Below, piece by piece: positions 11,140 to 44,413 of a stretch of 44,413 nucleotides of DNA. The translations under genes were made by a program, and so were the position numbers. Numbering within the stretch: the stretch's first letter is position 1; each line of letters opens with the position of its first letter. Under the pieces are notes generated by a model. That model saw only the letters and a program-made list of their open reading frames with translations, did no database searches and had not been told where the DNA came from. Source of the stretch: a virus (Duplodnaviria > Heunggongvirae > Uroviricota > Caudoviricetes); the IMG/VR virus record IMGVR_UViG_2657245588_000005. One strand, 5' to 3'.

Positions 11140-11220
11140 GTAAGCGTCGTCTCAGCACCGTCTGGCAGATCCTGAAATTCCTGAGAGAATAGTGGACACC
11201 AAATATGGTGGACGCTATCC

Positions 11221-11625
11221 ATGAAATCATTAACCGCAGTGCGTAAAAAAAGCCCTAATTATCCCGTTGAGTTCAAAATCAAAATGGTTGAACTCTCGCA
11301 TCGACCAGAGATCTCCGTAGCGCAACTCGCTCGTGAGCATGGGATCAACGATAATTTGCTGTTCAAGTGGCGCCAGTACTGGCGCGAAGGAAAACTACGT
11401 CCTCCTTCAACAACAGAAAACAACGTGCCTGAGCTGCTCCCGATAACACTTGATGCCGAAGATGTTGTCCCTACAACCTCCCCCCGGTCACAACCTGTAG
11501 CTGCTGCGACACCTGAATCACTCAATATCAGCTGTGAAGTGACGTTCCGGCACGGATCACTCCGTCTGAATGGTGCCATCAGCGAAAATATCCTGAACCT
11601 GCTGATACGGGAGCTCAAACGTTGA
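11221..11625 (+). CDS. IS66-family accessory protein TnpA (orf1)
   Basis: 134 aa with N-terminal HTH-like region; first ORF of the IS66 arrangement. Confidence 0.8.
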   Translation: MKSLTAVRKKSPNYPVEFKIKMVELSHRPEISVAQLAREHGINDNLLFKWRQYWREGKLRPPSTTENNVPELLPITLDAEDVVPTTSPRSQPVAAATPESLNISCEVTFRHGSLRLNGAISENILNLLIRELKR

Positions 11626-11969
11626 TCCCATTACCATCAGGGACAAAGATCTGGCTGGTCGCTGGCATCACCGATATGAGAAACGGCTTCAACGGCCTGG
11701 CGGCAAAGGTGCAGACGACGCTGAAAGACGATCCGATGTCAGGTCACGTTTTTATCTTCCGTGGGCGTAATGGCAGTCAGGTAAAGCTCCTCTGGTCTAC
11801 CGGCGATGGACTGTGTCTGCTGACCAAACGGCTGGAGCGCGGCCGCTTCGCCTGGCCGTCAGCCCGGGATGGCAAAGTGTTCCTCACACCGGCACAGCTG
11901 GCGATGCTGCTGGAAGGTATCGACTGGCGGCAGCCTAAAAGACTGCTTACGTCCCTGACTATGTTGTAA
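11622..11969 (+). CDS. IS66-family TnpB (orf2)
   Basis: 115 aa; overlaps orf1 stop; conserved IS66 orf2 size and position. Confidence 0.8.
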   Translation: MIPLPSGTKIWLVAGITDMRNGFNGLAAKVQTTLKDDPMSGHVFIFRGRNGSQVKLLWSTGDGLCLLTKRLERGRFAWPSARDGKVFLTPAQLAMLLEGIDWRQPKRLLTSLTML

Positions 11970-12017
11970 GCCTCTTTATCCTAGTCGACGCTGAATGAGC
12001 CTGGTAATATACCCGGT

Positions 12018-13553
12018 ATGAGCAGCTCACTTCCTGACGATATCAATGCACTGAAACGTCTCCTTGCCGAACAGGAGGCGCTGAACCGTGCCCTGCAGGA
12101 AAAGCTGAACGAGCGTGAACGCGAAATAGACCATCTGCAGGCACAGCTGGATAAGCTGCGCCGGATGAACTTCGGCAGCCGCTCGGAAAAAGTCTCCCGT
12201 CGTATCGCACAGATGGAAGCTGACCTGAAGGCACTTCAGAAAGAAAGTGATACCCTTACCGGTCGGGTTGACGACCCGGCCGTGCAGCGCCCGCTGCGTC
12301 AAACCCGCACCCGCAAACCGTTCCCCGAATCACTCCCCCGCGATGAAAAACGGCTGCTGCCGGCAGCGTCATGCTGCCCGGAATGTGGAGGCTCGCTGAG
12401 CTATCTGGGTGAGGATGCCGCTGAACAGCTGGAGCTGATGCGCAGCGCCTTCCGGGTTATCCGGACTGTACGTGAAAAGCATGCCTGTACTCAGTGCGAT
12501 GCCATCGTGCAGGCCCCCGCGCCTTCACGGCCCATCGAGCGGGGTATCGCAGGACCGGGGCTGCTGGCCCGCGTGCTGATCTCAAAGTATGCAGAGCACA
12601 CCCCGCTGTACCGCCAGTCTGAAATGTACGGCCGCCAGGGCGTGGAGCTGAGTCGTTCACTGCTGTCGGGCTGGGTGGATGCATGCTGCCGGCTACTGTC
12701 ACCGCTGGAAGAAGCGCTTCAGGACTATGTGCTGACTGACGGTAAGCTCCATGCTGATGACACGCCTGTCCCGGTGCTGTTGCCAGGCAATAAGAAAACG
12801 AAGACCGGGCGGTTATGGACCTACGTTCGTGACGACCGTAACGCCGGGTCAACGCTGGCGCCGGCGGTGTGGTTCGCTTACAGCCCGGACAGAAAAGGCA
12901 TCCATCCGCAGACCCATCTTGCGGGGTTCAGTGGTGTACTGCAGGCGGATGCATACGCCGGGTTCAACGAGCTGTACCGGGATGGCCGGATAACGGAAGC
13001 CGCCTGTTGGGCTCACGCCCGCCGTAAAATCCACGATGTGCACGTTCGCACCCCGTCAGCCCTGACGGAGGAAGCGCTGAAACGGATCGGCGAACTGTAC
13101 GCCATCGAGGCAGAGATAAGGGGAATGACGGCGGAGCAGCGCCTTGCCGAACGTCAGTTGAAAACGAAACCGCTGCTGAAATCCCTGGAAAGCTGGCTGC
13201 GTGAAAAGATGAAAACCCTGTCGCGACACTCAGAACTGGCGAAAGCGTTCGCATACGCCCTGAACCAGTGGCCGGCGCTGACGTACTATGCAGATGATGG
13301 CTGGGCTGAGGCGGACAATAACATCGCTGAAAATGCGTTGCGGATGGTCAGTCTGGGCCGCAAAAACTACCTGTTCTTCGGTTCGGATCATGGAGGAGAG
13401 CGGGGAGCGCTGCTGTACAGCCTGATCGGGACGTGCAAACTGAACGGAGTGGAGCCAGAAAGCTACCTCCGCTATGTCCTTGACGTCATAGCCGACTGGC
13501 CGATAAACCGGGTCGGCGAACTGCTCCCCCTGGCGCGTAGCACTGCCGACTGA
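12018..13553 (+). CDS. IS66-family transposase (TnpC, DDE)
   Basis: 511 aa with N-terminal coiled coil, CxxC zinc-finger region and DDE core, typical of IS66 TnpC. Confidence 0.88.
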
Positions 13554-13675
13554 ATAACACATCCCCGTCAATACGGTTCTTGCTGCACGCTTACGGATAA
13601 TCTCAGTCAGACTCCCTTACTCCGAACGCCCACCGCGTTCATCCCGCACATACCAGCAACGGATCTGGAGGTAAC

Positions 13676-14734: not shown

Positions 14735-15115
14735 ATGACTGAACGCATAGAATTTGTTTTGCCTTACCCGCCGACGGTGAATACCTACTGGCGACGTCAT
14801 GGCAATACGTATTTCATCTCGGAGGCCGGAAAGCGTTATCGCCGTGATGTGGCGCTAATTGTTCGCCAGCAGCGGCTGAAATTAAACCTGTCCGGAAGGC
14901 TGGCGATAAAGGTGATTGCAGAGCCACCGGATAAGCGTCGTCGCGACCTGGACAATATCCTGAAAGCACCGCTGGATGCGCTGACGCATGCGGGAGTGTT
15001 AATGGACGATGAGCAGTTTGATGAAATCAATATCGTTCGTGGTCAGCCAGTATCTGGTGGACGTCTGGGGGTGAAGATTTACCCCATAATGCATGAAGAG
15101 CAGGTCAAAAAATGA
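14735..15115 (+). CDS. rusA: Holliday junction resolvase RusA
   Basis: 126 aa with the RusA 'RRRDLDN' signature; start coupled to the upstream stop and stop overlapping the Q start. Confidence 0.85.
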   Translation: MTERIEFVLPYPPTVNTYWRRHGNTYFISEAGKRYRRDVALIVRQQRLKLNLSGRLAIKVIAEPPDKRRRDLDNILKAPLDALTHAGVLMDDEQFDEINIVRGQPVSGGRLGVKIYPIMHEEQVKK

Positions 15116-15933
15116 AACTGGAAGATTTACCGAAATACTACTCCCCAAAATCCCCTGGCCTGACCGATGCATCGGCCTCAACGTCAAAAGATGCGCTGAG
15201 TATCACTGATGTGATGGCCGCGCAGGGCATGACACAGAATCGGGCTGAGATGGGGTTTTCTGCGTTCCTGGGGAAAATGGGCATCAGTATGAATGACAGG
15301 GCGCGGGCAACAGAATTACTGGCAGATTATGCACTCAGTCGGTGCGATCGTGTTGCGGCGTTGAGAAAACTTCCGGCAGAAATAAAACCGTTAGTGATGC
15401 GCATTATGGCTTCGTACGCTTTTGAGGATTATGCCCGCAGCGCAGCGAGTAAAAAGCAGTGCCCTTGTTGCTATGGGGAAAAATTTATTGAAAGCGTAGT
15501 TTTTACAAACAAGGTCCAGTATCCGGATGGTAAGCCGCCGGTATGGGCAAAGTGTACGAAAGGTGTGTATTCGTCTTACTGGGAAGAATGGAAAAAAGTC
15601 AGGGAGGTGGTAAAAGTTGCCTGTCCGGAGTGTGGCGGAAAGGGTGAGGTTTCCACCGCCTGTAAGGATTGCCGTGGGCGTGGTGTCGCCATTCATCGTG
15701 AAGAGTCGGTAAAACGTGGTATGCCTGTTATCAGAGACTGCCAGCGTTGTGGTGGTCGTGGCTATGAAAGACTACCATCAACGGAGACATTTAATGCTAT
15801 ATGCGAGGTGACAAACCAGATAACACGCGCGTCATGGGAAAAAACAGTTAAGAAATTCTATGATGCGCTGGTGACCCGGTTTGATATTGAAGAAGCATGG
15901 GCTGAGCGGCAGTTAAAAAAGGTAACTAGGTAA
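15112..15933 (+). CDS. Late-gene antitermination protein Q (phage 21/82-type, zinc-finger)
   Basis: 273 aa with several CxxC pairs; immediately followed by a PR'-like promoter, a terminator and a tRNA. Confidence 0.8.
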   Translation: MKLEDLPKYYSPKSPGLTDASASTSKDALSITDVMAAQGMTQNRAEMGFSAFLGKMGISMNDRARATELLADYALSRCDRVAALRKLPAEIKPLVMRIMASYAFEDYARSAASKKQCPCCYGEKFIESVVFTNKVQYPDGKPPVWAKCTKGVYSSYWEEWKKVREVVKVACPECGGKGEVSTACKDCRGRGVAIHREESVKRGMPVIRDCQRCGGRGYERLPSTETFNAICEVTNQITRASWEKTVKKFYDALVTRFDIEEAWAERQLKKVTR

Positions 15934-16013: not shown

Positions 16014-16038
16014 AACCCGCCGCCGAGCGGGTTTTTTA
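16014..16038 (+). terminator. Intrinsic terminator downstream of the PR' candidate (tR'-like)
   Basis: CCCGC-CGCCGA-GCGGG hairpin followed by TTTTTT. Confidence 0.6.
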
Positions 16039-16076: not shown

Positions 16077-16152
16077 GGCCCTTTAGCTCAGTGGTGAGAG
16101 CGAGCGACTCATAATCGCCAGGTCGCTGGTTCAAATCCAGCAAGGGCCACCA
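16077..16152 (+). tRNA. tRNA with CAT anticodon (Met or lysidine-modified Ile2; phage ileZ-like), with encoded CCA
   Basis: 76 nt folds by hand into a cloverleaf: 7-bp acceptor stem GGCCCTT/AAGGGCC, D-stem GCTC/GAGC, anticodon loop CTCATAA, T-arm GCTGG-TTCAAAT-CCAGC, 3' ACCA. Confidence 0.85.
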
Positions 16153-16252: not shown

Positions 16253-16300
16253 GCGTTGTTAGCTCAGCCGGGCAGAGCAATTGCCTTCTAAGCAGCTGTG
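16253..16300 (+). pseudogene. tRNA-Arg(UCU)-like remnant (5' half only; T-arm and 3' acceptor strand degenerate)
   Basis: GCGTTGT-TA-GCTC...GAGC D-arm and anticodon arm with loop CTTCTAA resemble phage argN/argO tRNAs, but no complementary 3' acceptor strand or T-stem follows. Confidence 0.3.
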
Positions 16301-16494
16301 GTTGCACTCCTGTTGTTTCTGGTGGTGATGGTGGACTTCAGCAGCCGGATAATGTCGGTGCTGTCTGATGGTGTTTTGGTGGCGGGTGTGTGGTTGTTGC
16401 TTTCCCGTTGCTGAAAAAGAAAGCATCAGGCGATTAGCAGGGTATCAGTTACCCGTTGAAATTTTTAAATACCTCACAATTCCACAGCTTGATG

Positions 16495-16694
16495 ATTGTC
16501 TGGCTGCCGGAGAATTTGTTAAAAATTACATCGCATGGTGAATCCCCCTCAGCGGCGGGGCATCTGGCAAAGTGTATGATCCAGAGAACATGCAAATTCA
16601 GTAGACAGGCTGAATTTACCGGGAGGCCCCTGGCACCATGCGACAGACAGAAATTAGGCTATACTTCAGCCCCTCTCCGGAGGGGCTTTTCTGT
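16495..16694 (+). repeat. Structured element copy 1 (shared 5' and 3' arms, ends in an intrinsic terminator); candidate sRNA or late-leader module
   Basis: Shares with copy 2 the 5' block 'attgtctggc.gccgg...tttgttaaaaa..tcgcatggtgaatccccc' and the 3' block 'gaattcaccgggaggc.cc.ggcaccatgc...cagcccctctccggaggggct' followed by T-run; 5' GGTGAAT is complementary to 3' ATTCACC. Confidence 0.6.
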
Positions 16695-16961
16695 GCAGGA
16701 TGTGTCACAGTTTCCTGAATTCTGAGTACTGTCCTGTTACTCAGGGTGCTATATTTTCTGACGTGATGAAAGTCTGCCGGAAGGCGGAACGTATCGGAAA
16801 TGACCCAGTAGAGAAAACGTTGACTCAGATACCGATGCTGAGTTACCGGGAAACCGGCATCACATGACCGCTATCCTTCCAGGCTCGCTCCGGCGGGCCT
16901 TTTTACTGCAGAAAACAGTTTTCCCGTAAAATGCCACGTTGCTCATAATTCAGGCTGGCGA

Positions 16962-17160
16962 TTATTGTCTGGCCGGCGGGAAGTTTGTTAAAAAATTTCG
17001 CATGGTGAATCCCCCTGTGCGGAGGGGTAATCAGCGAGTAGGTATATGGGATAATCGCGGATTCAGGTGCTGGTACTGAATTCACCGGGAGGCACCCGGC
17101 ACCATGCAATGGCACATAGCGCCACTCTCCAGCCCCTCTCCGGAGGGGCTGTTTATATTG
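16962..17160 (+). repeat. Structured element copy 2 (diverged middle, same ends and terminator)
   Basis: Same conserved 5' and 3' blocks and the same terminator hairpin CCCCTCTCCGGAGGGG as copy 1. Confidence 0.6.
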
Positions 17161-17185
17161 ATTTTGTCAGATGTGAGTAAACTCC

Positions 17186-17521
17186 TTATGGACTTTGTTG
17201 TTTTAGTCCATAAGGACATATTTGCAGAATGCAACGGTTATTAAAGCATTCATTCAATACGTTATCTGTATTTGTAGGGCATTCCTGGCTGTTTTTGATT
17301 AAATTCCAGAATGTTTTATTGAATGGTACTACGTTGTAAATGGTTACAGGTAGCACTTTGTTATTGAGCATGATACCTGTGTGAGTCAGTGTAAATATAC
17401 TTTCAGGAGGTAAGAAAGCATCCGATTGATACCAGATTATTAATTTTACTTTACTCCATATGACTGAAAAAGATATTCCGCATGATGGCTGGATAACTGT
17501 ATCAATTACAATCCACTTCAT
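17186..17521 (-). CDS. Hypothetical protein (111 aa) in AT-rich DNA, antisense to the late operon (moron at the stx-equivalent site)
   Basis: ATG at 17519-17521 with AAGGAAG RBS 6 nt upstream; strongly AT-rich ORF and flank (17186-17760) compared with the surrounding phage DNA; no recognisable motif. Confidence 0.5.
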
Positions 17522-17781
17522 TTAGCTTCCTTGTTTATGCCTTGCTGGTGATGTTCTGAAAAGTATAAATGATATTTTTGAATATAAACCATAGAGCAGA
17601 ATTATTTTTCTGATGTTGTTTATTGTTTATTTAAATGCAGGGTGGTTTATATCTCGTCTTGTAGTTTATCCATGCATATCTGCTTGATGATCAGGTTTCT
17701 ATTTAAGGTATGGTTTTGTGTTTTTTCTGTGTTACATGTCTGGTATTTTAAAGAATTATTTTTCAGATGGTGGAAAGAACC

Positions 17782-17970
17782 ATGGCATTTAAACACTATG
17801 ATGTTGTCAGGGCGGCGCCGCCGTCAGATCTTGCGGAAAAGCTGACACATAAACTGAAAGAGGGCTGGCAGCCGTTTGGTAGTCCGGTGGCCATAACCCC
17901 TTATACCCTGATGCAGGCGATTGCAGCAGAAGGTGATGTGGTGGTCAGTGGTGCAACTGAGCCGGAGTGA
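17782..17970 (+). CDS. Small conserved phage protein upstream of the lysis cassette (possibly DUF1737-like)
   Basis: 62 aa from ATG 17782 with GGTGGAAAG RBS; 'MAFKHYDVVRAAPPSDLAEKLTHKLKEGWQPFGSPV...'. Confidence 0.45.
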   Translation: MAFKHYDVVRAAPPSDLAEKLTHKLKEGWQPFGSPVAITPYTLMQAIAAEGDVVVSGATEPE

Positions 17971-18277
17971 TACTACGTCATCGTACTGGCCCGGCATTCC
18001 AGACCATAAAAGACGGTCTGGCAGTGGGACTAAATGCACTGACGCTGACGGATATTACCAAAAATGCAACGTATGGCGTTGAGATAGAAAGTCTGGTGCT
18101 GGAGATAAATACACCGGCATCATCATAAAAAGTGAGCCAGTCAAATGGAAGGTATCGTTAAACTCACCGGTAGTGTCAGTGGATCGTCTGAGACGCTTGC
18201 ATGAGTTATCAGAGCCATCAGTAGTTAACTGGTGGCTTTTTTATTGTTGTCAGCTTCCGGATAACGGGAGACGGGGT

Positions 18278-18493
18278 ATGGACCAGATGGAAAAAATCAC
18301 AACAGGTGTGTCATACACCACGTCAGCGGTGGGAACGGGCTACTGGTTCCTGCAGTTGCTGGACAGGGTTTCCCCGTCTCAGTGGGCGGCAATAGGCGTG
18401 CTGGGGAGTCTGCTGTTTGGGCTGCTGACATATCTGACTAACCTGTATTTCAAAATCAGAGAGGACCGTCGTAAGGCGGCACGGGGAGAGTAA
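18278..18493 (+). CDS. Class II holin (phage 21 S21 pinholin family) with dual-start motif
   Basis: 71 aa '[71 protein letters not shown]'; M1 and M4 dual starts; two TM segments; matches recalled S21/EssD. Confidence 0.85.
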
Positions 18494-19934: not shown

Positions 19935-20228
19935 TTATTGTGAGCAATACACACGCGCTTCCAGTGGAGTATAAATGCCTAAAGTAATAAAACCGAGAAA
20001 TCCATTTACGAATGTTTGCTGGGTTTCTGTTTTAACAACATTTTCTGCGCCGCCACAAATTTTGGCTGCATCAACAGTTTTCTCCTGTCCAATTCCCGAA
20101 ACGAAGAAATGATGGGTGATGGTTTCCTTTGGTGTTACTGCTGTCGGTTTGTTTCCAACAGTAAACGTCTGTTGAGCACATCCTGTAATAAGCATTGCCA
20201 GAGCGGCAGAAAACAACATTTTTTTCAT
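19935..20228 (-). CDS. bor: Bor lipoprotein (serum-resistance lysogenic-conversion protein)
   Basis: 97 aa 'MKKMLFSAALAMLITGCAQQTFTV...LEARVYCSQ' with lipobox ITGC; matches recalled lambda Bor; antisense to the late genes. Confidence 0.85.
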   Translation of the reverse strand: MKKMLFSAALAMLITGCAQQTFTVGNKPTAVTPKETITHHFFVSGIGQEKTVDAAKICGGAENVVKTETQQTFVNGFLGFITLGIYTPLEARVYCSQ

Positions 20229-38300: not shown

Positions 38301-38828
38301 AGTGGTAGTGTGAATGCGAACTCAGGAACGCTCAACAATGTCACGATTAACCAGAACTGTACGATTAAGGGCATGCTGGAGGCGACCCAGGTCAGAGGGG
38401 ATTTCGTTAAAGCTGTATCAAAAGCCTTCCCGAAAAAAGTCGGTACGTGGGGTAACACGGAAACACCAAACGGTACGGTTACAGTCACCATCAGCGATGA
38501 TCATAACTTTGACCGCCAGATTATTATTCCGCCCATTATCTTTAACGGAATAGCGTATAGCGATCCGGGAAGTGGTAATAACCCGGGAGGTACAAGATAC
38601 ACGGGTTATGGTTTTGAAGTTCGCAAAAACGGCGTATTAATCGCATCCAGAGAAACTAAAGGGGCCATTCCCGGTAGTTACAGTGCGGTTATTGATATGC
38701 CGAGTGGCAGGGGAAGCGTCACTCTGGAGTTTAAGATTTTCCAGAAAGGCAATCAGGGGGCAGGCAATATCACCGACTGTACGGTGATTGTGACCAAAAA
38801 GGCTGCTTCCGGCATCAGTATTCGTTGA
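35331..38828 (+). CDS. Host specificity protein J (central tail fibre / tail tip)
   Basis: 1165 aa; lambda J-like size and position, with fibronectin-like repeats in the middle. Confidence 0.9.
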
Positions 38829-38850
38829 AATTGTTATAACCCCAATAAAG

Positions 38851-38875
38851 GGCGTCAGGAATGACGCCTTTTTTA
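38851..38875 (+). terminator. Rho-independent terminator after J
   Basis: GGCGTCA-GGAA-TGACGCC hairpin followed by TTTTTT. Confidence 0.75.
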
Positions 38876-38898
38876 TTGCAGAAAAGCGAGAGGTAATT

Positions 38899-39498
38899 AT
38901 GCGTAAAGTTTGTGCAGCCATTTTGTCCGCAGCCATCTGTCTGGTCGTATCCGGTGCGCCTTCATGGGCGTCTGAACATCAGTCCACGCTGAGCGCGGGG
39001 TATCTTCATGCCTCGACGAACGTTCCCGGCAGCGATGATCTTAACGGGATTAACGTGAAATACCGCTATGAGTTTACGGACACGCTGGGGATGGTGACGT
39101 CATTCAGCTATGCAGAAGACAAGAATCGCCAGCTGACTCATTACAGCGATACCCGCTGGCATGAAGATTCCGTGCGTAATCGCTGGTTCAGCGTGATGGC
39201 GGGGCCGTCTGTGCGCGTGAATGAATGGTTCAGCGCGTATGCGATGGCGGGTGTGGCTTACAGCCGTGTTTCGACTTTCTCCGGGGATTATCTCCGCGTA
39301 ACTGACAACAAGGGGAAAACGCACGAAGTGCTGACCGGAAGTGATGACGGTCGCCGCAGCAACACGTCTCTGGCGTGGGGGGCTGGCGTGCAGTTTAACC
39401 CGACCGAATCCGTGGCCATTGATATTGCTTATGAAGGCTCCGGCAGTGGTGACTGGCGCACTGACGGTTTCATCATGGGTGTCGGTTATAAGTTCTGA
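38899..39498 (+). CDS. lom: Outer membrane protein Lom (Ail/Lom family; lysogenic-conversion gene)
   Basis: 199 aa with signal peptide and beta-barrel-like alternating pattern, C-terminal 'GVGYKF'; flanked by terminators like lambda lom. Confidence 0.85.
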   Translation: MRKVCAAILSAAICLVVSGAPSWASEHQSTLSAGYLHASTNVPGSDDLNGINVKYRYEFTDTLGMVTSFSYAEDKNRQLTHYSDTRWHEDSVRNRWFSVMAGPSVRVNEWFSAYAMAGVAYSRVSTFSGDYLRVTDNKGKTHEVLTGSDDGRRSNTSLAWGAGVQFNPTESVAIDIAYEGSGSGDWRTDGFIMGVGYKF

Positions 39499-39524
39499 TT
39501 AGCCAGGTAACACAGTGTTATGAC

Positions 39525-39552
39525 AGCCCGCCGGTTCAGGCGGGCTTTTTTG
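39525..39552 (+). terminator. Rho-independent terminator after lom
   Basis: GCCCGCC-GGTTCA-GGCGGGC hairpin followed by TTTTTT. Confidence 0.75.
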
Positions 39553-39556
39553 TGGG

Positions 39557-42500
39557 GTGAATATGGCAGTAAAGATTTCAGGTGTACTGAAAGACGGTGC
39601 AGGTAAACCGGTACAGAACTGCACAATCCAGCTGAAAGCAAAACGTAACAGCACCACGGTGGTGGTGAACACGGTGGCCTCAGAAAATCCGGATGAAGCC
39701 GGGCGTTACAGCATGGACGTTGAGTACGGTCAGTACAGCGTTATTCTGTTGGTGGAAGGATTCCCGCCGTCACATGCCGGGACCATCACCGTGTATGAAG
39801 ATTCCCGACCCGGTACGCTGAATGATTTTCTCGGTGCCATGACGGAGGATGATGCCCGTCCTGAGGCACTGCGCCGTTTTGAACTGATGGTGGAAGAGGT
39901 GGCGCGTAACGCGTCCGCGGTGGCGCAGAACACGGCAGCCGCGAAGAAGTCAGCCAGCGATGCCGGCACATCAGCCCGTGAGGCGGCAACCCGTGCGACT
40001 GATGCTGCAGGCTCAGCACGTGCAGCCAGCACGTCAGCCGGACAGGCCGCGTCGTCGGCTCAGTCAGCGTCTTCCAGCGCAGGAACGGCATCAACAAAGG
40101 CCACTGAAGCATCAAAAAGTGCTGCCGCCGCAGAGTCTTCAAAAAGCGCGGCAGCCACCAGTGCCGGTGCAGCGAAAACGTCGGAAATGAATGCCGCAGC
40201 ATCACAAAAATCTGCGGCCACTTCTGCATCCACCGCGACCACGAAAGCGTCAGAAGCTGCCACCTCAGCCCGGGATGCGTCGGCTTCAAAAGTGGCGGCA
40301 AAATCATCAGAAACGAGCGCTGCCTCGAGCGCCGGCAGTGCAGCTTCCTCGGCAACGGCAGCAGGAAATTCCGCGAAGGCCGCAAAAACGTCTGAGACGA
40401 ATGCGGATAACAGCGCACAGGCGGCAGCAGACTCACAAACTGCATCGGCAAACTCCGCGACAGCAGCCAAAAAATCAGAAACCAACGCGAAAAATAGTGA
40501 GGCAGCAGCAAAGGTCAGCGAAACCAACGCTAAAGCGTCAGAGAACAAGGCGAAAGAATATCTCGACAAGGTCGGGGGACTCGTCAGCCCGATGACGCAA
40601 TACGATTGGCCCGTTGTTACTGGTAATGAGTCTTTTTACATAAAGATCGCGAAACTTTCCGATCCCGGAAGCGGCAATTGCCATGTAACGCTAATGGTTA
40701 CTAATGCTGGTAACTACGGCTCCCCTTACGGAAACATTGACTTTATCGAGATCTCGGCGCGCGGTCTGCCTTCTTTGCTTAGTGCGGATAATGTTTCTCG
40801 TCATCTGAGTATACGCCGCTTAGGGTCAACCGGGCTGACCGATAACAACCAGATGCGTTACGGCCTGGTTAAAGGTGATGGCTTTATTGAGGTTTGGGCC
40901 TTCCAGCGCGCATTTATCAACGGCGCAAAGGTTGCGGTGCTGGCGCAGACGGCACGCCCGGAATTATACATTCCAGACGGATTTGTTAAGCAAACCGCCG
41001 CGCCTTCTGGATATGTTGAAGGCCCCGTTGTAAGGATTTACGACCAGGTAAACAAGCCGACTAAAGCAGATTTGGGTCTTTCTAATGCTATGCTTACAGG
41101 CGCTTTCGGTCTTGGCGGTAGCGGGATATCAACAAACGGCAAGATGAGCGATGTAGAGATCTTAAAAGCTCTGCGTGACAAAGGTGGTCATTTCTGGCGC
41201 GGTGATAAGCCGACCGGAAGCACGGCGACCATTTATAGCCACGGTTCTGGTATATTCTCGCGGTGCGGCGATACGTGGTCAGCGATCAATATCGACTACT
41301 CAACCGCGAAGATTAAGATCTATGCCGGCAACGATGCCCGGCTTAACAACGGGACTTTTAGCGTCAATGAGCTATACGGCTCGGCAAACAAGCCGTCGAA
41401 ATCGGATGTTGGACTTGGCAACGTAACGAACGATGCGCAGGTAAAAAAAACCGGCGATACAATGACCGGTGACTTGACAATCAAAAAAGGTACACCGTCA
41501 GTCTTCCTGCGGGCAGACAGTGGAGTCACCGCTTTGCGGTTTTATACTGGCGATAACACAGAGCGCGGCATAATCTATGCTGGTCCTAACACTGATTCGC
41601 TTGGCGAAGTTCGCATCAGGGCAAAGACAGCAGGGGGGACATCAGGAGGGGATCTTGTTGTTCGTCACGACGGGAGGGTTGAAGTCCGTGATCTCACAGT
41701 AGCGTATAAAATTAAAAGCAGAACGATTGAGATTGCAAATACCGACACTGACTCATCGGCAACTACGCTCAGCATCTATGGAGTACAGCACACGCCGTTG
41801 GTTTTAACGCGTTCTGGTTCTTCTGAAAATGTGTCCATTGGGTTTAAGTTAGACAACATGAACCCAAAGTATCTTGGAATTGATACTAATGGGGATCTGG
41901 CTTTTGGTGAGAGTCCTGATCAGAAACAAAACAGCAAATTGATCACGCAAGCGAAACTCGACAAGGGATTAACGATTGGTGGTCAACTGGCTTTCAAAGG
42001 TACGACAGCGTTTTCAGCCGTTGCTACGTTCAGTGCCGGGATAGCAGGAGCCATCGAGCCGGAAAACATTGACGGCCAGACGGTTAATCTTAACAACCTG
42101 ACCATCATCAAGTCAGATGCCGGGGCAGTTAAATACTATATTTGTCCATCCTCTGCAGGTGGTGCAAATATCACCAACAAGCCTGACGGCGTAACAGGTA
42201 ACTTTTTGCTCCGTGTTGAATCGACTCGTAAGGTTAGGGATTCAGATTATGCGAACATGCAAACGCTGATTAACAGCGACACAAAACGTATATACGTTCG
42301 CTTTGTTGTTAATGGAAACTGGACAGCGTGGAGTCAGGTTGTTGTTTCCGGATGGAATCAGGATGTAACCGTCAGGTCGTTAACCTCGACGACTCCATCA
42401 AAATTAGGTGGCGGGCGGATTGATGTGCTTGGAAGTACGTCAGATTATGGCAGCATGAATTGTACCGTTCGTGGTGTTGATAGCACTGGAACCAATTCGG

Positions 42501-43339
42501 CGTGGTCGGTAGGCACATCAGAAAGCACAGGCAAAAAGTTGTTCCTGAAAAACCACAGAAGCAGCGCTCAAGTGCTGTTAAATGGCGATGATGGAGCGGT
42601 TCAACTACTAAGTGGCACTGTTAACGGTGCTACAGCGCAGGCGCTAACCATCAACAAAGATGAGGTTAACTCAACTGCCGATTTAGTAATTAGAAAACAA
42701 ACAGGGACTGGCAATCGTTTTGCTTTACTTAATTCAGGTAATTCAGAACTGCCAGTTAGCATCGCGGTCTGGGGGTCAAGTGATCGACAAAACGTTTTTG
42801 AGGTTGCAACGTCTGCTGCGTATCTGTTTTATGCGCAAAGAACACCAGCAGGCCAGTTGTTTGATGTAAATGGCGCTATTAATTGCACAACGCTGAATCA
42901 GTCATCAGACCGCGACCTTAAAGACGATATTCGCGTTATCAGCGACGCGACGAAAGCAATCCGCAAAATGAACGGTTACACCTACACGCTCAAGGAAAAC
43001 GGCCTGCCTTATGCTGGCGTTATTGCACAGGAAGTAATGGAGGCGATACCAGAAGCTGTGGGATCGTTTACTCATTATGGTGAAGAGTTGCAAGGTCCGA
43101 CCGTTGACGGCAACAAGCTACGCGAAGAAACGCGCTATCTTAATGTTGACTACGCCGCCGTGACGGGTTTACTTGTTCAGGTCGCCCGTGAAACAGATGA
43201 TCGCGTTACCGCGCTGGAAGAGGAAAACACAACGCTACGTCAAAATCTGGCAACAGCAGGCACCCGGATCAGCACTCTGGAAAATCAGGTAAGCGAACTG
43301 GTTGCACTTGTCCGGCAGTTAACAGGAAGCGAACATTGA
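39557..43339 (+). CDS. Side tail fibre protein (lambda Stf-like N-terminus and Ala/Ser-rich repeats; C-terminal self-cleaving intramolecular chaperone domain, S74-like)
   Basis: 1260 aa; long Ala/Ser/Thr-rich repeat tract (protein about 110-340, DNA about 39900-40570); C-terminal 'SSDRDLKDDIRVISDATKAIRKMNGYTY...' resembles the endosialidase-type chaperone domain. Confidence 0.85.
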   Translation: MNMAVKISGVLKDGAGKPVQNCTIQLKAKRNSTTVVVNTVASENPDEAGRYSMDVEYGQYSVILLVEGFPPSHAGTITVYEDSRPGTLNDFLGAMTEDDARPEALRRFELMVEEVARNASAVAQNTAAAKKSASDAGTSAREAATRATDAAGSARAASTSAGQAASSAQSASSSAGTASTKATEASKSAAAAESSKSAAATSAGAAKTSEMNAAASQKSAATSASTATTKASEAATSARDASASKVAAKSSETSAASSAGSAASSATAAGNSAKAAKTSETNADNSAQAAADSQTASANSATAAKKSETNAKNSEAAAKVSETNAKASENKAKEYLDKVGGLVSPMTQYDWPVVTGNESFYIKIAKLSDPGSGNCHVTLMVTNAGNYGSPYGNIDFIEISARGLPSLLSADNVSRHLSIRRLGSTGLTDNNQMRYGLVKGDGFIEVWAFQRAFINGAKVAVLAQTARPELYIPDGFVKQTAAPSGYVEGPVVRIYDQVNKPTKADLGLSNAMLTGAFGLGGSGISTNGKMSDVEILKALRDKGGHFWRGDKPTGSTATIYSHGSGIFSRCGDTWSAINIDYSTAKIKIYAGNDARLNNGTFSVNELYGSANKPSKSDVGLGNVTNDAQVKKTGDTMTGDLTIKKGTPSVFLRADSGVTALRFYTGDNTERGIIYAGPNTDSLGEVRIRAKTAGGTSGGDLVVRHDGRVEVRDLTVAYKIKSRTIEIANTDTDSSATTLSIYGVQHTPLVLTRSGSSENVSIGFKLDNMNPKYLGIDTNGDLAFGESPDQKQNSKLITQAKLDKGLTIGGQLAFKGTTAFSAVATFSAGIAGAIEPENIDGQTVNLNNLTIIKSDAGAVKYYICPSSAGGANITNKPDGVTGNFLLRVESTRKVRDSDYANMQTLINSDTKRIYVRFVVNGNWTAWSQVVVSGWNQDVTVRSLTSTTPSKLGGGRIDVLGSTSDYGSMNCTVRGVDSTGTNSAWSVGTSESTGKKLFLKNHRSSAQVLLNGDDGAVQLLSGTVNGATAQALTINKDEVNSTADLVIRKQTGTGNRFALLNSGNSELPVSIAVWGSSDRQNVFEVATSAAYLFYAQRTPAGQLFDVNGAINCTTLNQSSDRDLKDDIRVISDATKAIRKMNGYTYTLKENGLPYAGVIAQEVMEAIPEAVGSFTHYGEELQGPTVDGNKLREETRYLNVDYAAVTGLLVQVARETDDRVTALEEENTTLRQNLATAGTRISTLENQVSELVALVRQLTGSEH

Positions 43340-43522
43340 TATCCTTCAAGCTCTGAAGGAGGCTGTTCCCGGTACGTTCAGACTGTTGTTGAGCTGGAAA
43401 TCGCAACGGAGGAAGAAACCTTGTTGCTGGAAGCCTGGAAGAAGTATCGGGTGTTGCTGAACCGTGTTGATACATCAGTAGCACCGGATATTGAGTGGCC
43501 TGCTGTCCCTGTTATGGAGTAA
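43340..43522 (+). pseudogene. Remnant of tail fibre assembly gene (tfa) 3' end
   Basis: In frame directly after the tail fibre stop; ends '...[31 protein letters not shown]', the conserved Tfa C-terminus; no credible start or RBS. Confidence 0.5.
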
Positions 43523-43625
43523 TCGTTTTGAGATACGCCGCATACACGTTGTATGCAATAACGTGCTGCGGCTTGGTAAATTTTAGCTAGTTTCAGCAGG
43601 AGACATAAAAAACTTCAATATAAGA

Positions 43626-44413
43626 TTAAGCATCACGTATTGCCAACCTGATTTTTGACTGATACCAATTGGGGCCTTCTGCAATTATTTCTTCCTCAAC
43701 ATGCATGATGGGATGCATTTCAATTTCAGAGTTTTTGACTTTTAGATCTAGTCCATATTTTTTTGAAATTTGTAAAACTTCATTTTTGAAATCCTTATCT
43801 GCGAAAGGTGAAATCCTTATTTCTTCCAACAGATTATTAAGAGATACAGGGACTAGTTTTCCCTTTACAGGTGGAGTGTTAAAGGTATTCTCTTGAAAAA
43901 TAGCTCTAAACTCTTTTTCGTGTTCGAAAGATGGTCTCTTGTTAAAGAATACATCTGATTCTGGATTGTATTGTTTTATCCAGAAATTTTTGACGTATTT
44001 TACGTGTTTTAATTGTAGTTTGTTTAGATTATTATTTTCAAGTTGGCTTTGGAGGTTTTTTTCTTTGATTTTATGACAACGCCTTTAGCGGGGTTTTTAC
44101 AATACAGCTTCCACATAGCTTCAGATTCATGTTCGTTACAATGCCAGCAACTTATATATGTCCTCTCGCTTATTTCCTTAGGTGTCTTTAAATTGAATGC
44201 CATGAAAGGCTCTAAGTCCATGCCGGCACCATGAGTAGCGCATAGTTTTTCCTGTGTCTCAATGAATTTTTTATAGCCAGTATGTCCCCAAGCAAATTCA
44301 CCTTCGAACGGATCTTCAAAATTTTTTGCTGAGCAAAAAAATAAAGCATTTTGTTCGAGTAACATAGAGAATTTCTCTATGTCAAGATATCGCCATATAT
44401 ACTCAGTGTGCAT
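43626..44413 (-). pseudogene. DUF2971-like protein gene split by a frameshift at a homopolymer (129-aa N-terminal ORF plus downstream open frame), in AT-rich cargo DNA
   Basis: ATG at 44411-44413; N-terminal 'YLDIEKFSMLLEQNALFFCSAKNFEDPFEGEF' and 'YISCWHCNEHESEAMWKLYC' resemble recalled DUF2971 motifs; the frame stops at 44024-44026, but a second frame is open from 44023 down to 43626; the T7 run at 44056-44062 is the likely shift point. Confidence 0.45.

Follow-up and report, generated by a model that had tools for sequence, protein, structure and literature searches.

An iraL allele encoding a member of the IraM/IraL anti-adaptor family lies antisense to the late genes of a lambdoid prophage

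Between the antitermination gene Q and the lysis cassette of the lambdoid prophage analysed here (the window, 44,413 nt at its full length) lies an AT-rich segment whose one sizeable gene runs against the late genes, which raises the question of what this gene encodes and how it would be expressed in a lysogen. The ORF listing places an intact coding sequence of 111 aa, with an ATG start and a TAA stop codon, at 17186-17521 on the minus strand; we refer to it as iraL on the grounds given below. The remaining ORFs of the segment are all 67 aa or shorter, and the RefSeq annotation there consists of the iraL ORF alone. The G+C content is 0.339 in the ORF versus 0.506 in the whole window, and 0.298 in the 245-nt intergenic region that separates iraL from the next gene and holds its promoter (17522-17766, unstranded). 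A 300-nt G+C profile falls to 0.33-0.39 solely at ~17100-17850, and iraL thus occupies an island of 32-34% G+C inside a lambdoid prophage of 51% G+C.

Late transcription crosses the iraL locus on the opposite strand, and the late region begins with the gene for antitermination protein Q (15112-15933, plus strand; Pfam PF03589, E = 1.2e-54, and RefSeq), which is followed in the plus orientation by a tR'-like terminator (16014-16033) and one tRNA (16077-16152). A copy of the small RNA STnc100 (16972-17160, plus strand; Rfam RF02076, 132.5 bits against a gathering score of 47) is convergent with iraL, and its terminator hairpin, located by a terminator scan at 17130-17151, lies 35 nt past the iraL stop codon; the same scan found no canonical terminator for iraL itself on the minus strand. 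The first late-strand gene after iraL is a DUF1737 ORF (17767-17970, plus strand; Pfam PF08410), an N-terminal remnant of a nanS-p esterase gene that is 90% identical to residues 1-62 of the 632-aa nanS-p product of phage Stx2_EH1910 and is marked incomplete by RefSeq. The lysis cassette then opens with a class II holin of the phage 21 S type (18278-18493, plus strand; Pfam PF04971, with RefSeq coordinates transferred from L001), and YdfR, lysozyme and Rz also belong to the late region. Since Q, the DUF1737 remnant, the holin, lysozyme and Rz are all encoded on the plus strand, iraL is antisense to the late genes. A sequence-only reading of this DNA had described a strongly AT-rich segment between Q and the holin with a sole convincing ORF of 111 aa on the strand opposite to the late operon, preceded by an AAGGAAG ribosome-binding site. 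Coordinates, orientation, composition and the want of a rival ORF all agree with that description, as does the ribosome-binding site, which occupies 17526-17532 (minus strand) and precedes the ATG by 4 nt in both the sequence and the alignment.

The same reading recognised no motif in the protein, a view that gives way on comparison with curated families and solved structures. NCBIfam model NF007393, 'anti-adapter protein IraM' (PRK09919), matched with 162 bits against a curated cutoff of 121, aligning residues 1-110 of the window protein to profile positions 1-113 of 114. Chain A of PDB entry 8TWD, which comprises IraM residues 1-78, matched residues 1-78 of the window protein without gaps (E = 8.7e-32), and RefSeq lists an identical protein from E. 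coli M217, WP_001333560.1, under the name 'anti-adapter protein IraM'. The protein is identical to IraL (c1429, formerly ycgW) of uropathogenic E. coli CFT073 at 109 of 111 positions (98%), versus 63% identity to IraM of K-12. A Pfam scan of the ORF returned no family, Pfam being without a model where NCBIfam covers the family, and the PHROGs match, phrog_4407, is described as 'unknown function'. A single-sequence AlphaFold model had a mean pLDDT of 36, too poor for use of its fold; the N-terminal PmrD-like beta-barrel (IraM residues 1-78) is instead predicted from the match to 8TWD, which supports the assignment at the level of sequence. Across the iraL, iraM and Stx2-phage clades of the family dN/dS ranges from 0.09 to 0.17, and the protein is therefore under purifying selection. 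Hryckowian et al. defined iraL by at least 95% nucleotide identity to the CFT073 gene across the whole coding sequence; as the window sequence differs from CFT073 iraL at four of 336 nt (98.8% identity), versus ~71% identity to K-12 iraM, the ORF is iraL. Taken together, we regard it as very probable that the ORF is an iraL allele, a paralogue of K-12 iraM and a moron of a lambdoid prophage at the potB/potC site, and that its product works by the mechanism described for CFT073 IraL. The gene itself is already known: its name and characterisation date from 2014, and its product is annotated by RefSeq as an anti-adapter protein.

The likeness to CFT073 extends well beyond the coding sequence. 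The 701-nt locus is ~98% identical to that of CFT073 with no indels, and the two share the gene order Q, tRNA(s), a DUF3927 ORF, STnc100, iraL on the minus strand, a truncated DUF1737 ORF, a small ORF and the holin. IraL has the same length in both and, compared with IraM, carries QQSP as a C-terminal extension in each, and the untranslated region, the -10 hexamer, the neighbouring genes and the potB-site prophage are likewise shared. The window protein differs in having V25 and I98 where CFT073 IraL has I and T, respectively; the ribosome-binding site is AAGGAAG rather than AAGGAAA, the likely -35 hexamer is TTTATA rather than TTTACA, and upstream the window carries two full STnc100 copies and one tRNA, versus one STnc100 copy, three tRNAs and an IS200 in CFT073. 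The relationship to IraM of K-12 (b1160), an anti-adaptor of Mg2+ starvation, is more distant. Family, N-terminal domain and target (RssB) are the same, and C81, C92, C97 and C102 of the IraM tail are conserved in the window protein, but K-12 IraM has 107 aa rather than 111, homology ends at the edges of the coding sequence, promoter and flanks differ, and the K-12 gene adjoins e14, outside a late operon. Judged from these sequence comparisons, the window gene is not an orthologue of K-12 iraM. No STnc100 was found near K-12 iraM even at permissive thresholds, and we do not claim the K-12 gene as a remnant of an STnc100/ira pair, given that its homology stops at the coding sequence and STnc100 is missing.

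What IraL does is known from CFT073, in which it binds RssB, an adaptor resembling response regulators, and stabilises the stress sigma factor RpoS (sigma-S) in logarithmic phase (Hryckowian et al. 2014, mBio 5:e01043-14, PMC4045071). Deletion of iraL lowered the log-phase sigma-S level and reduced its half-life from ~5 to 2.5 min, while re-introduction of iraL with its native promoter restored sigma-S stability; the interaction with RssB was demonstrated by two-hybrid analysis and co-purification (pull-down) and involved the N-terminal receiver domain only (PMC4045071). For the K-12 homologue, residues 1-78 form a PmrD-like beta-barrel in the IraM-RssB complex 8TWD, in which the barrel spans the two RssB domains as well as the helical linker and covers the alpha4-beta5-alpha5 face of the receiver, so that sigma-S is kept off this surface (PMC10844676). 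IraM and IraL thus differ in their reported contacts with RssB, IraM engaging both domains and IraL the N-terminal domain only (PMC4045071). We compared the window protein with IraM at the RssB-contact residues listed in PMC10844676 (clusters I-III and P66). In cluster I, which contacts the receiver domain, all five residues (I4, I6, W22, K26, I42) are identical. Cluster II retains C14, F18 and W30 (three of five) with T13S and L75I, cluster III retains I61 and Y62 (two of four) with H63N and I64V, the latter pair altering half of the four linker-contact residues relative to K-12 IraM, and P66 is identical. Divergence is confined to contacts with the linker and the C-terminal domain, a pattern that fits the N-terminal-only binding of RssB reported for IraL. 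With all five receiver-domain contacts conserved, the window protein may be expected to act as CFT073 IraL does: by binding the N-terminal receiver domain of RssB it would prevent the delivery of sigma-S to the protease ClpXP, and sigma-S would be stabilised during exponential growth.

Other proteins resemble IraL in fold or in outcome. PmrD, a connector protein, binds the receiver domain of a response-regulator-type protein, PmrA, as IraM does with RssB. It differs in its partner and in the result of binding, which is the protection of phosphorylated PmrA from dephosphorylation. A search of PDB sequences detected no match between PmrD and the window protein; in structure, no protein of the PDB other than PmrD (4HN7) shares the IraM fold (PMC10844676). 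IraP and IraD likewise inhibit RssB and stabilise sigma-S (PMC4045071, PMC10844676), but are unrelated in sequence, bind in other modes (PMC4045071) and are not morons of prophage late regions.

A consensus promoter scan did not detect the iraL promoter, which we located through homology to the transcription start mapped in CFT073. [quoted passage not shown] As the CFT073 5' RACE product ACATCACCAGCAAGGCATAAACAAGGAA (PMC4045071) exactly matches positions 17554-17527 of the window minus strand, transcription is predicted to start at the A at 17554, giving a 5' untranslated region of 33 nt (17522-17554, minus strand). A -10 hexamer, TATACT, lies 7 nt upstream of this start (17562-17567, minus strand) and is the same in all six aligned loci, and the region 17522-17766 as a whole is ~98% identical to CFT073. 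The likely -35 hexamer is TTTATA (17583-17588, minus strand), where CFT073, ATCC 25922, THO-008, 2020C08-115 and O55:H7 DEC5E have TTTACA, the differing base lying at 17584; the window hexamer fits the consensus at four of six positions, versus five of six for that of CFT073. Its assignment is uncertain, because the spacer between it and TATACT is short at 15 nt. The base immediately upstream of the start site also differs between the window and CFT073, and the ribosome-binding site reads AAGGAAA in CFT073 and four further loci. In a lysogen, iraL would be transcribed on the minus strand from its own sigma-70 promoter starting at 17554, while during lytic growth Q-antiterminated late transcription would be expected to cross the gene head-on. 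H-NS-type silencing and temperature control probably act on the AT-rich promoter. In published expression data, iraL (c1429) mRNA was detected in CFT073 and increased by 1.6 log2 when cells were shifted to 37 C, and the IraL level was higher in a CFT073 fur mutant. The sequence-only reading had expected the gene to be expressed independently of lytic transcription; the near-identical CFT073 gene does have its own sigma-70 promoter, active in growing lysogens (PMC4045071), but the likely -35 of the window allele differs, so that its expression can be put forward only by analogy. An exact copy of the window's 60-nt promoter haplotype was present in 283 of 1429 iraL-bearing complete genomes, and one of the CFT073 haplotype in 255. 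Roughly 20% of iraL-bearing complete genomes therefore share the -35 variant of the window.

This variant bears on the question of whether the allele is active at all. The encoded protein could be the same while the allele is weakly expressed or silent, if T in place of C in the likely -35 weakens the promoter and leaves little control over sigma-S. TTTATA stands against TTTACA in five sampled loci, among them the characterised CFT073 promoter, and the authors of the CFT073 study, who noted a -35 point mutation in iraL2, a second iraL copy of JJ1886, and also in other strains, doubted the expression of such copies and stated that whether they are expressed was unknown to them (PMC4045071). However, a haplotype found in 283 complete genomes, with the ORF intact in the sampled annotated copies, gives no sign of decay; the untranslated region and the -10 hexamer have been kept, the Shine-Dalgarno sequence is even slightly stronger, AT-rich upstream DNA could offset a weak -35, and the short spacer leaves the hexamer assignment itself in doubt. 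We consider a silent allele unlikely on balance, though it is the most serious of the alternatives. Less probable still is that iraL, like K-12 IraM, responds to Mg2+ starvation through induction by PhoP/PhoQ, instead of or besides acting constitutively in log phase. This idea draws on a PhoP-box-like direct repeat, TGTTTATTGTTTATTTA, at 17617-17633 (plus strand), which agrees with the consensus at 11 of 12 positions, and on a comparable match that the promoter of the Stx2-phage paralogue has at an equal distance. A fit of 11/12 is marginal in AT-rich DNA, being reached in 4% of shuffles, and the repeat lies at -63 to -79 from the predicted start, with no overlap of the -35. In typical PhoP-activated promoters the PhoP box overlaps the -35. 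The region upstream of K-12 iraM is, moreover, non-homologous to that of the window, and IraL was defined by its action in unstressed log phase (PMC4045071). We treat the repeat as a weak lead only.

The remaining two explanations concern the nature of the gene product rather than its expression. The sequence-only reading had offered phage exclusion as one possible role. Late-region morons of temperate phages often encode exclusion functions, and position is what speaks for such an anti-phage defence factor here. Against it, PADLOC returned no match among 5,027 defence models even at E = 1, and a protein 98% identical to that of the window has a demonstrated and different activity, on RssB and RpoS; an exclusion role is accordingly highly improbable and that part of the proposal is not upheld. 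An ORF arising by chance in AT-rich non-coding DNA can be dismissed with still greater assurance. AT-rich prophage spacers often hold spurious ORF calls, and several calls of this kind overlap the neighbouring STnc100 copies. However, when 17100-17800 was shuffled 2000 times by mononucleotide, just 10 of the shuffled sequences contained an ATG ORF of 111 codons or more, so that a chance ORF of this length is not expected even in DNA of such composition. Together with dN/dS values of 0.09-0.17 over three clades, the solved structure of a homologue (8TWD) and the genetic and biochemical data for the 98%-identical CFT073 gene (PMC4045071), the shuffles refute this reading.

The prophage that carries iraL in the window is 99.6-99.98% identical to a prophage of E. 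coli M217, the integrase end of which adjoins potC; because this near-identical prophage abuts potC, the window represents the same potB-site phage type as CFT073. Window and M217 are not co-linear throughout, differing by an IS66-family insertion and a divergent tail-fibre end. To place the gene among related phages, the locus was surveyed in mEp460_ev081, Evi and H-19B, which keep Q, tRNAs, STnc100 and the holin and have no ira gene: its position holds other ORFs in mEp460_ev081, none in Evi and nanS-p in H-19B. Since these relatives retain the flanks without the gene, ira is facultative cargo. Presence or absence between conserved flanks, a G+C content of 0.32 versus 0.51 and a transcription start of its own, assigned by homology, are the marks of a moron, and with the foreign composition, the opposite orientation and the site between Q and the holin they sustain the earlier proposal of horizontally acquired cargo, as does the finding from the survey suggested at the time that the flanks are constant and the cargo varies. 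The proposed role in lysogenic conversion is also supported, in that the CFT073 homologue is transcribed in lysogens and alters host physiology (PMC4045071).

The description of the locus as a site equivalent to that of stx needs refinement. The segment does fall within the cargo region between Q and the holin, but in Stx2 phages that carry an ira gene, this gene adjoins stx2AB and does not replace it. In Stx2_EH1910 and phiSTEC1575-Stx2k the order is tRNAs, stx2A, stx2B, STnc100, ira on the minus strand and then nanS-p or the holin, and both phages thus carry ira and stxAB together, so that mutual exclusion of the two was not found. In H-19B, STnc100 directly follows stx1B. As ira and stx2AB coexist in this order, the ira slot is the next one downstream of that for stx, past STnc100. 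The paralogue found in such phages (2851, 1717, Stx2c phages, some Stx2a phages and an Stx2k phage) is 72-74% identical in amino acid sequence to the window protein, has a related promoter region and likewise lies on the minus strand directly after STnc100 and before nanS-p or the holin; it differs in its length of 107 aa and in its location immediately downstream of stx2AB, with STnc100 between. We found no characterisation of this paralogue in the literature searched.

The family is widespread in both phages and hosts. A tblastn search with the window protein of 50,697 phage records revealed 46 with a family member. Identical iraL copies occur in four phages, vB_EcoS-640R1, -813R8, -733R4 and -716R1, and ~41 records carry a third clade of 107-aa proteins with 72-74% amino acid identity, often unannotated. 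The carriers of this third clade are nearly all Stx2 phages, mostly Stx2c, together with 2851, 1717 and several Stx2a phages. The ira paralogue that stands beside stx2 in Stx2c and Stx2a phages is thus a third clade of the family and one that appears unstudied. At least one family member was present in 4757 of 5426 complete E. coli genomes. A copy of the iraL type (at least 90% nucleotide identity) was found in about 1,430-1,440 of the 5,426, and most of the remaining genomes have only iraM (~71% nucleotide identity) or the O157/Stx2-phage type (~77%). In a spread sample of 40 genomes all listed copies were annotated as anti-adapter protein, with the match in KR2009 covering 27% of the query.

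The convergent arrangement of STnc100 and ira recurs in CFT073 and in two Stx2 phages examined for gene order, and the pair as such was found in the window and in CFT073, as well as immediately after stx2AB in ~40 deposited genomes of Stx2 phages. It is conceivable, if rather doubtful at present, that convergent ira and STnc100 constitute a functional module of lambdoid late regions, Stx2 phages included, which couples sigma-S stability to the transcriptional state of the prophage. In such a module, ira would be expressed in the lysogen and sigma-S raised, while upon induction Q-antiterminated transcription would pass the STnc100 terminators and proceed head-on through ira, switching it off. 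If so, the stability of sigma-S in the host would be tied to the lysogenic or lytic state of its prophage, the physiology of the host during toxin production by Stx2 phages would be tied to the same switch, and the Stx2-phage paralogue would be a third RssB anti-adaptor of this family. For the iraL gene of the window, the analysis offers a worked example of how an antisense ORF of odd composition in a phage late region may prove to be the hijacking of a host regulator, one that would stabilise the general stress sigma factor, with a proposed relevance to the niche adaptation of uropathogenic E. coli and Shigella.

The DNA flanking iraL (17186-17521, minus strand), the RssB anti-adaptor gene of the prophage, carries a single tRNA gene at 16077-16152 (plus strand), one of the three that are usual at this place in the uropathogenic E. 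coli CFT073 and in Stx phages. As ARAGORN calls this gene tRNA-Met (CAT) while RefSeq annotates it as tRNA-Ile, it is probably a lysidine tRNA of the ileZ type. It is followed by a 38-aa DUF3927/TciB-like ORF (16298-16414, plus strand) and, in the remaining interval before iraL, by a plus-strand tandem array of three copies of the prophage sRNA STnc100 (RF02076) at 16503-16696, 16732-16907, and 16972-17160. Two of these copies are full (138 and 132.5 bits) and one is degenerate (30 bits), each being closed by a GC-rich terminator hairpin, whereas CFT073 has only one copy. STnc100 has been linked to PasD sRNAs in a 2026 preprint. Some of the coding sequences annotated over these RNAs in public records look spurious, including a RefSeq pseudo-CDS equivalent to 16990-17115 (minus strand) of the window.

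On the promoter side of iraL, a PhoP-box-like direct repeat, TGTTTATTGTTTATTTA (17617-17633, plus strand; 11/12), occupies positions -79 to -63 relative to the inferred iraL start, and the promoter of the paralogue in Stx2 phages has a PhoP-box-like match at the same distance, although the repeat in the window barely exceeds chance (P about 0.04). Beyond it are two plus-strand ORFs left by an internal deletion in nanS-p (yjhS), a phage esterase gene of ~632 codons. The 67-aa DUF1737 ORF (17767-17970) is the N-terminal remnant, 90% identical to residues 1-62, while the 53-aa ORF (17967-18128) is the C-terminal remnant, corresponding to NanS-p residues 596-626 and aligning to positions 582-632 of the phrog_143 profile. 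A second minus-strand moron, the serum-survival lipoprotein gene bor/iss (19935-20228), is found downstream of the lysis genes and likewise sits within a G+C dip (about 0.38-0.43).

Comparison with the otherwise near-identical prophage of E. coli M217 revealed that the latter lacks an IS66-family element of 2455 bp present in the early/nin region of the window (11140-13594), and that the corresponding site in M217 falls within a 92-aa hypothetical ORF. The element contains tnpA-like (11221-11625), tnpB-like (11622-11969), and tnpC-like (12018-13553) genes, has the ends GTAAGCGT, is flanked by the 8-bp target duplication GGATAATC, and accounts for the 57-63% G+C block of the window. The two prophages also diverge piecewise at the tail-fibre end (38361-44413), with 97% then 90% identity and alignment gaps at 38361-38810, 41478-42052, and beyond 42848.

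The IraM-family proteins of Stx2 phages form a third clade of 107 aa, with 72-74% amino acid identity to IraL, of which we found no discussion in the literature searched. Their genes, frequently unannotated, are on the minus strand, immediately following stx2B and a copy of STnc100, and occur in L006 (6377-6700), L005 (4288-4611), and about 40 other Stx2 phage records. Carriers include Stx2c phages, phages 2851 and 1717, several Stx2a phages, and an Stx2k phage.
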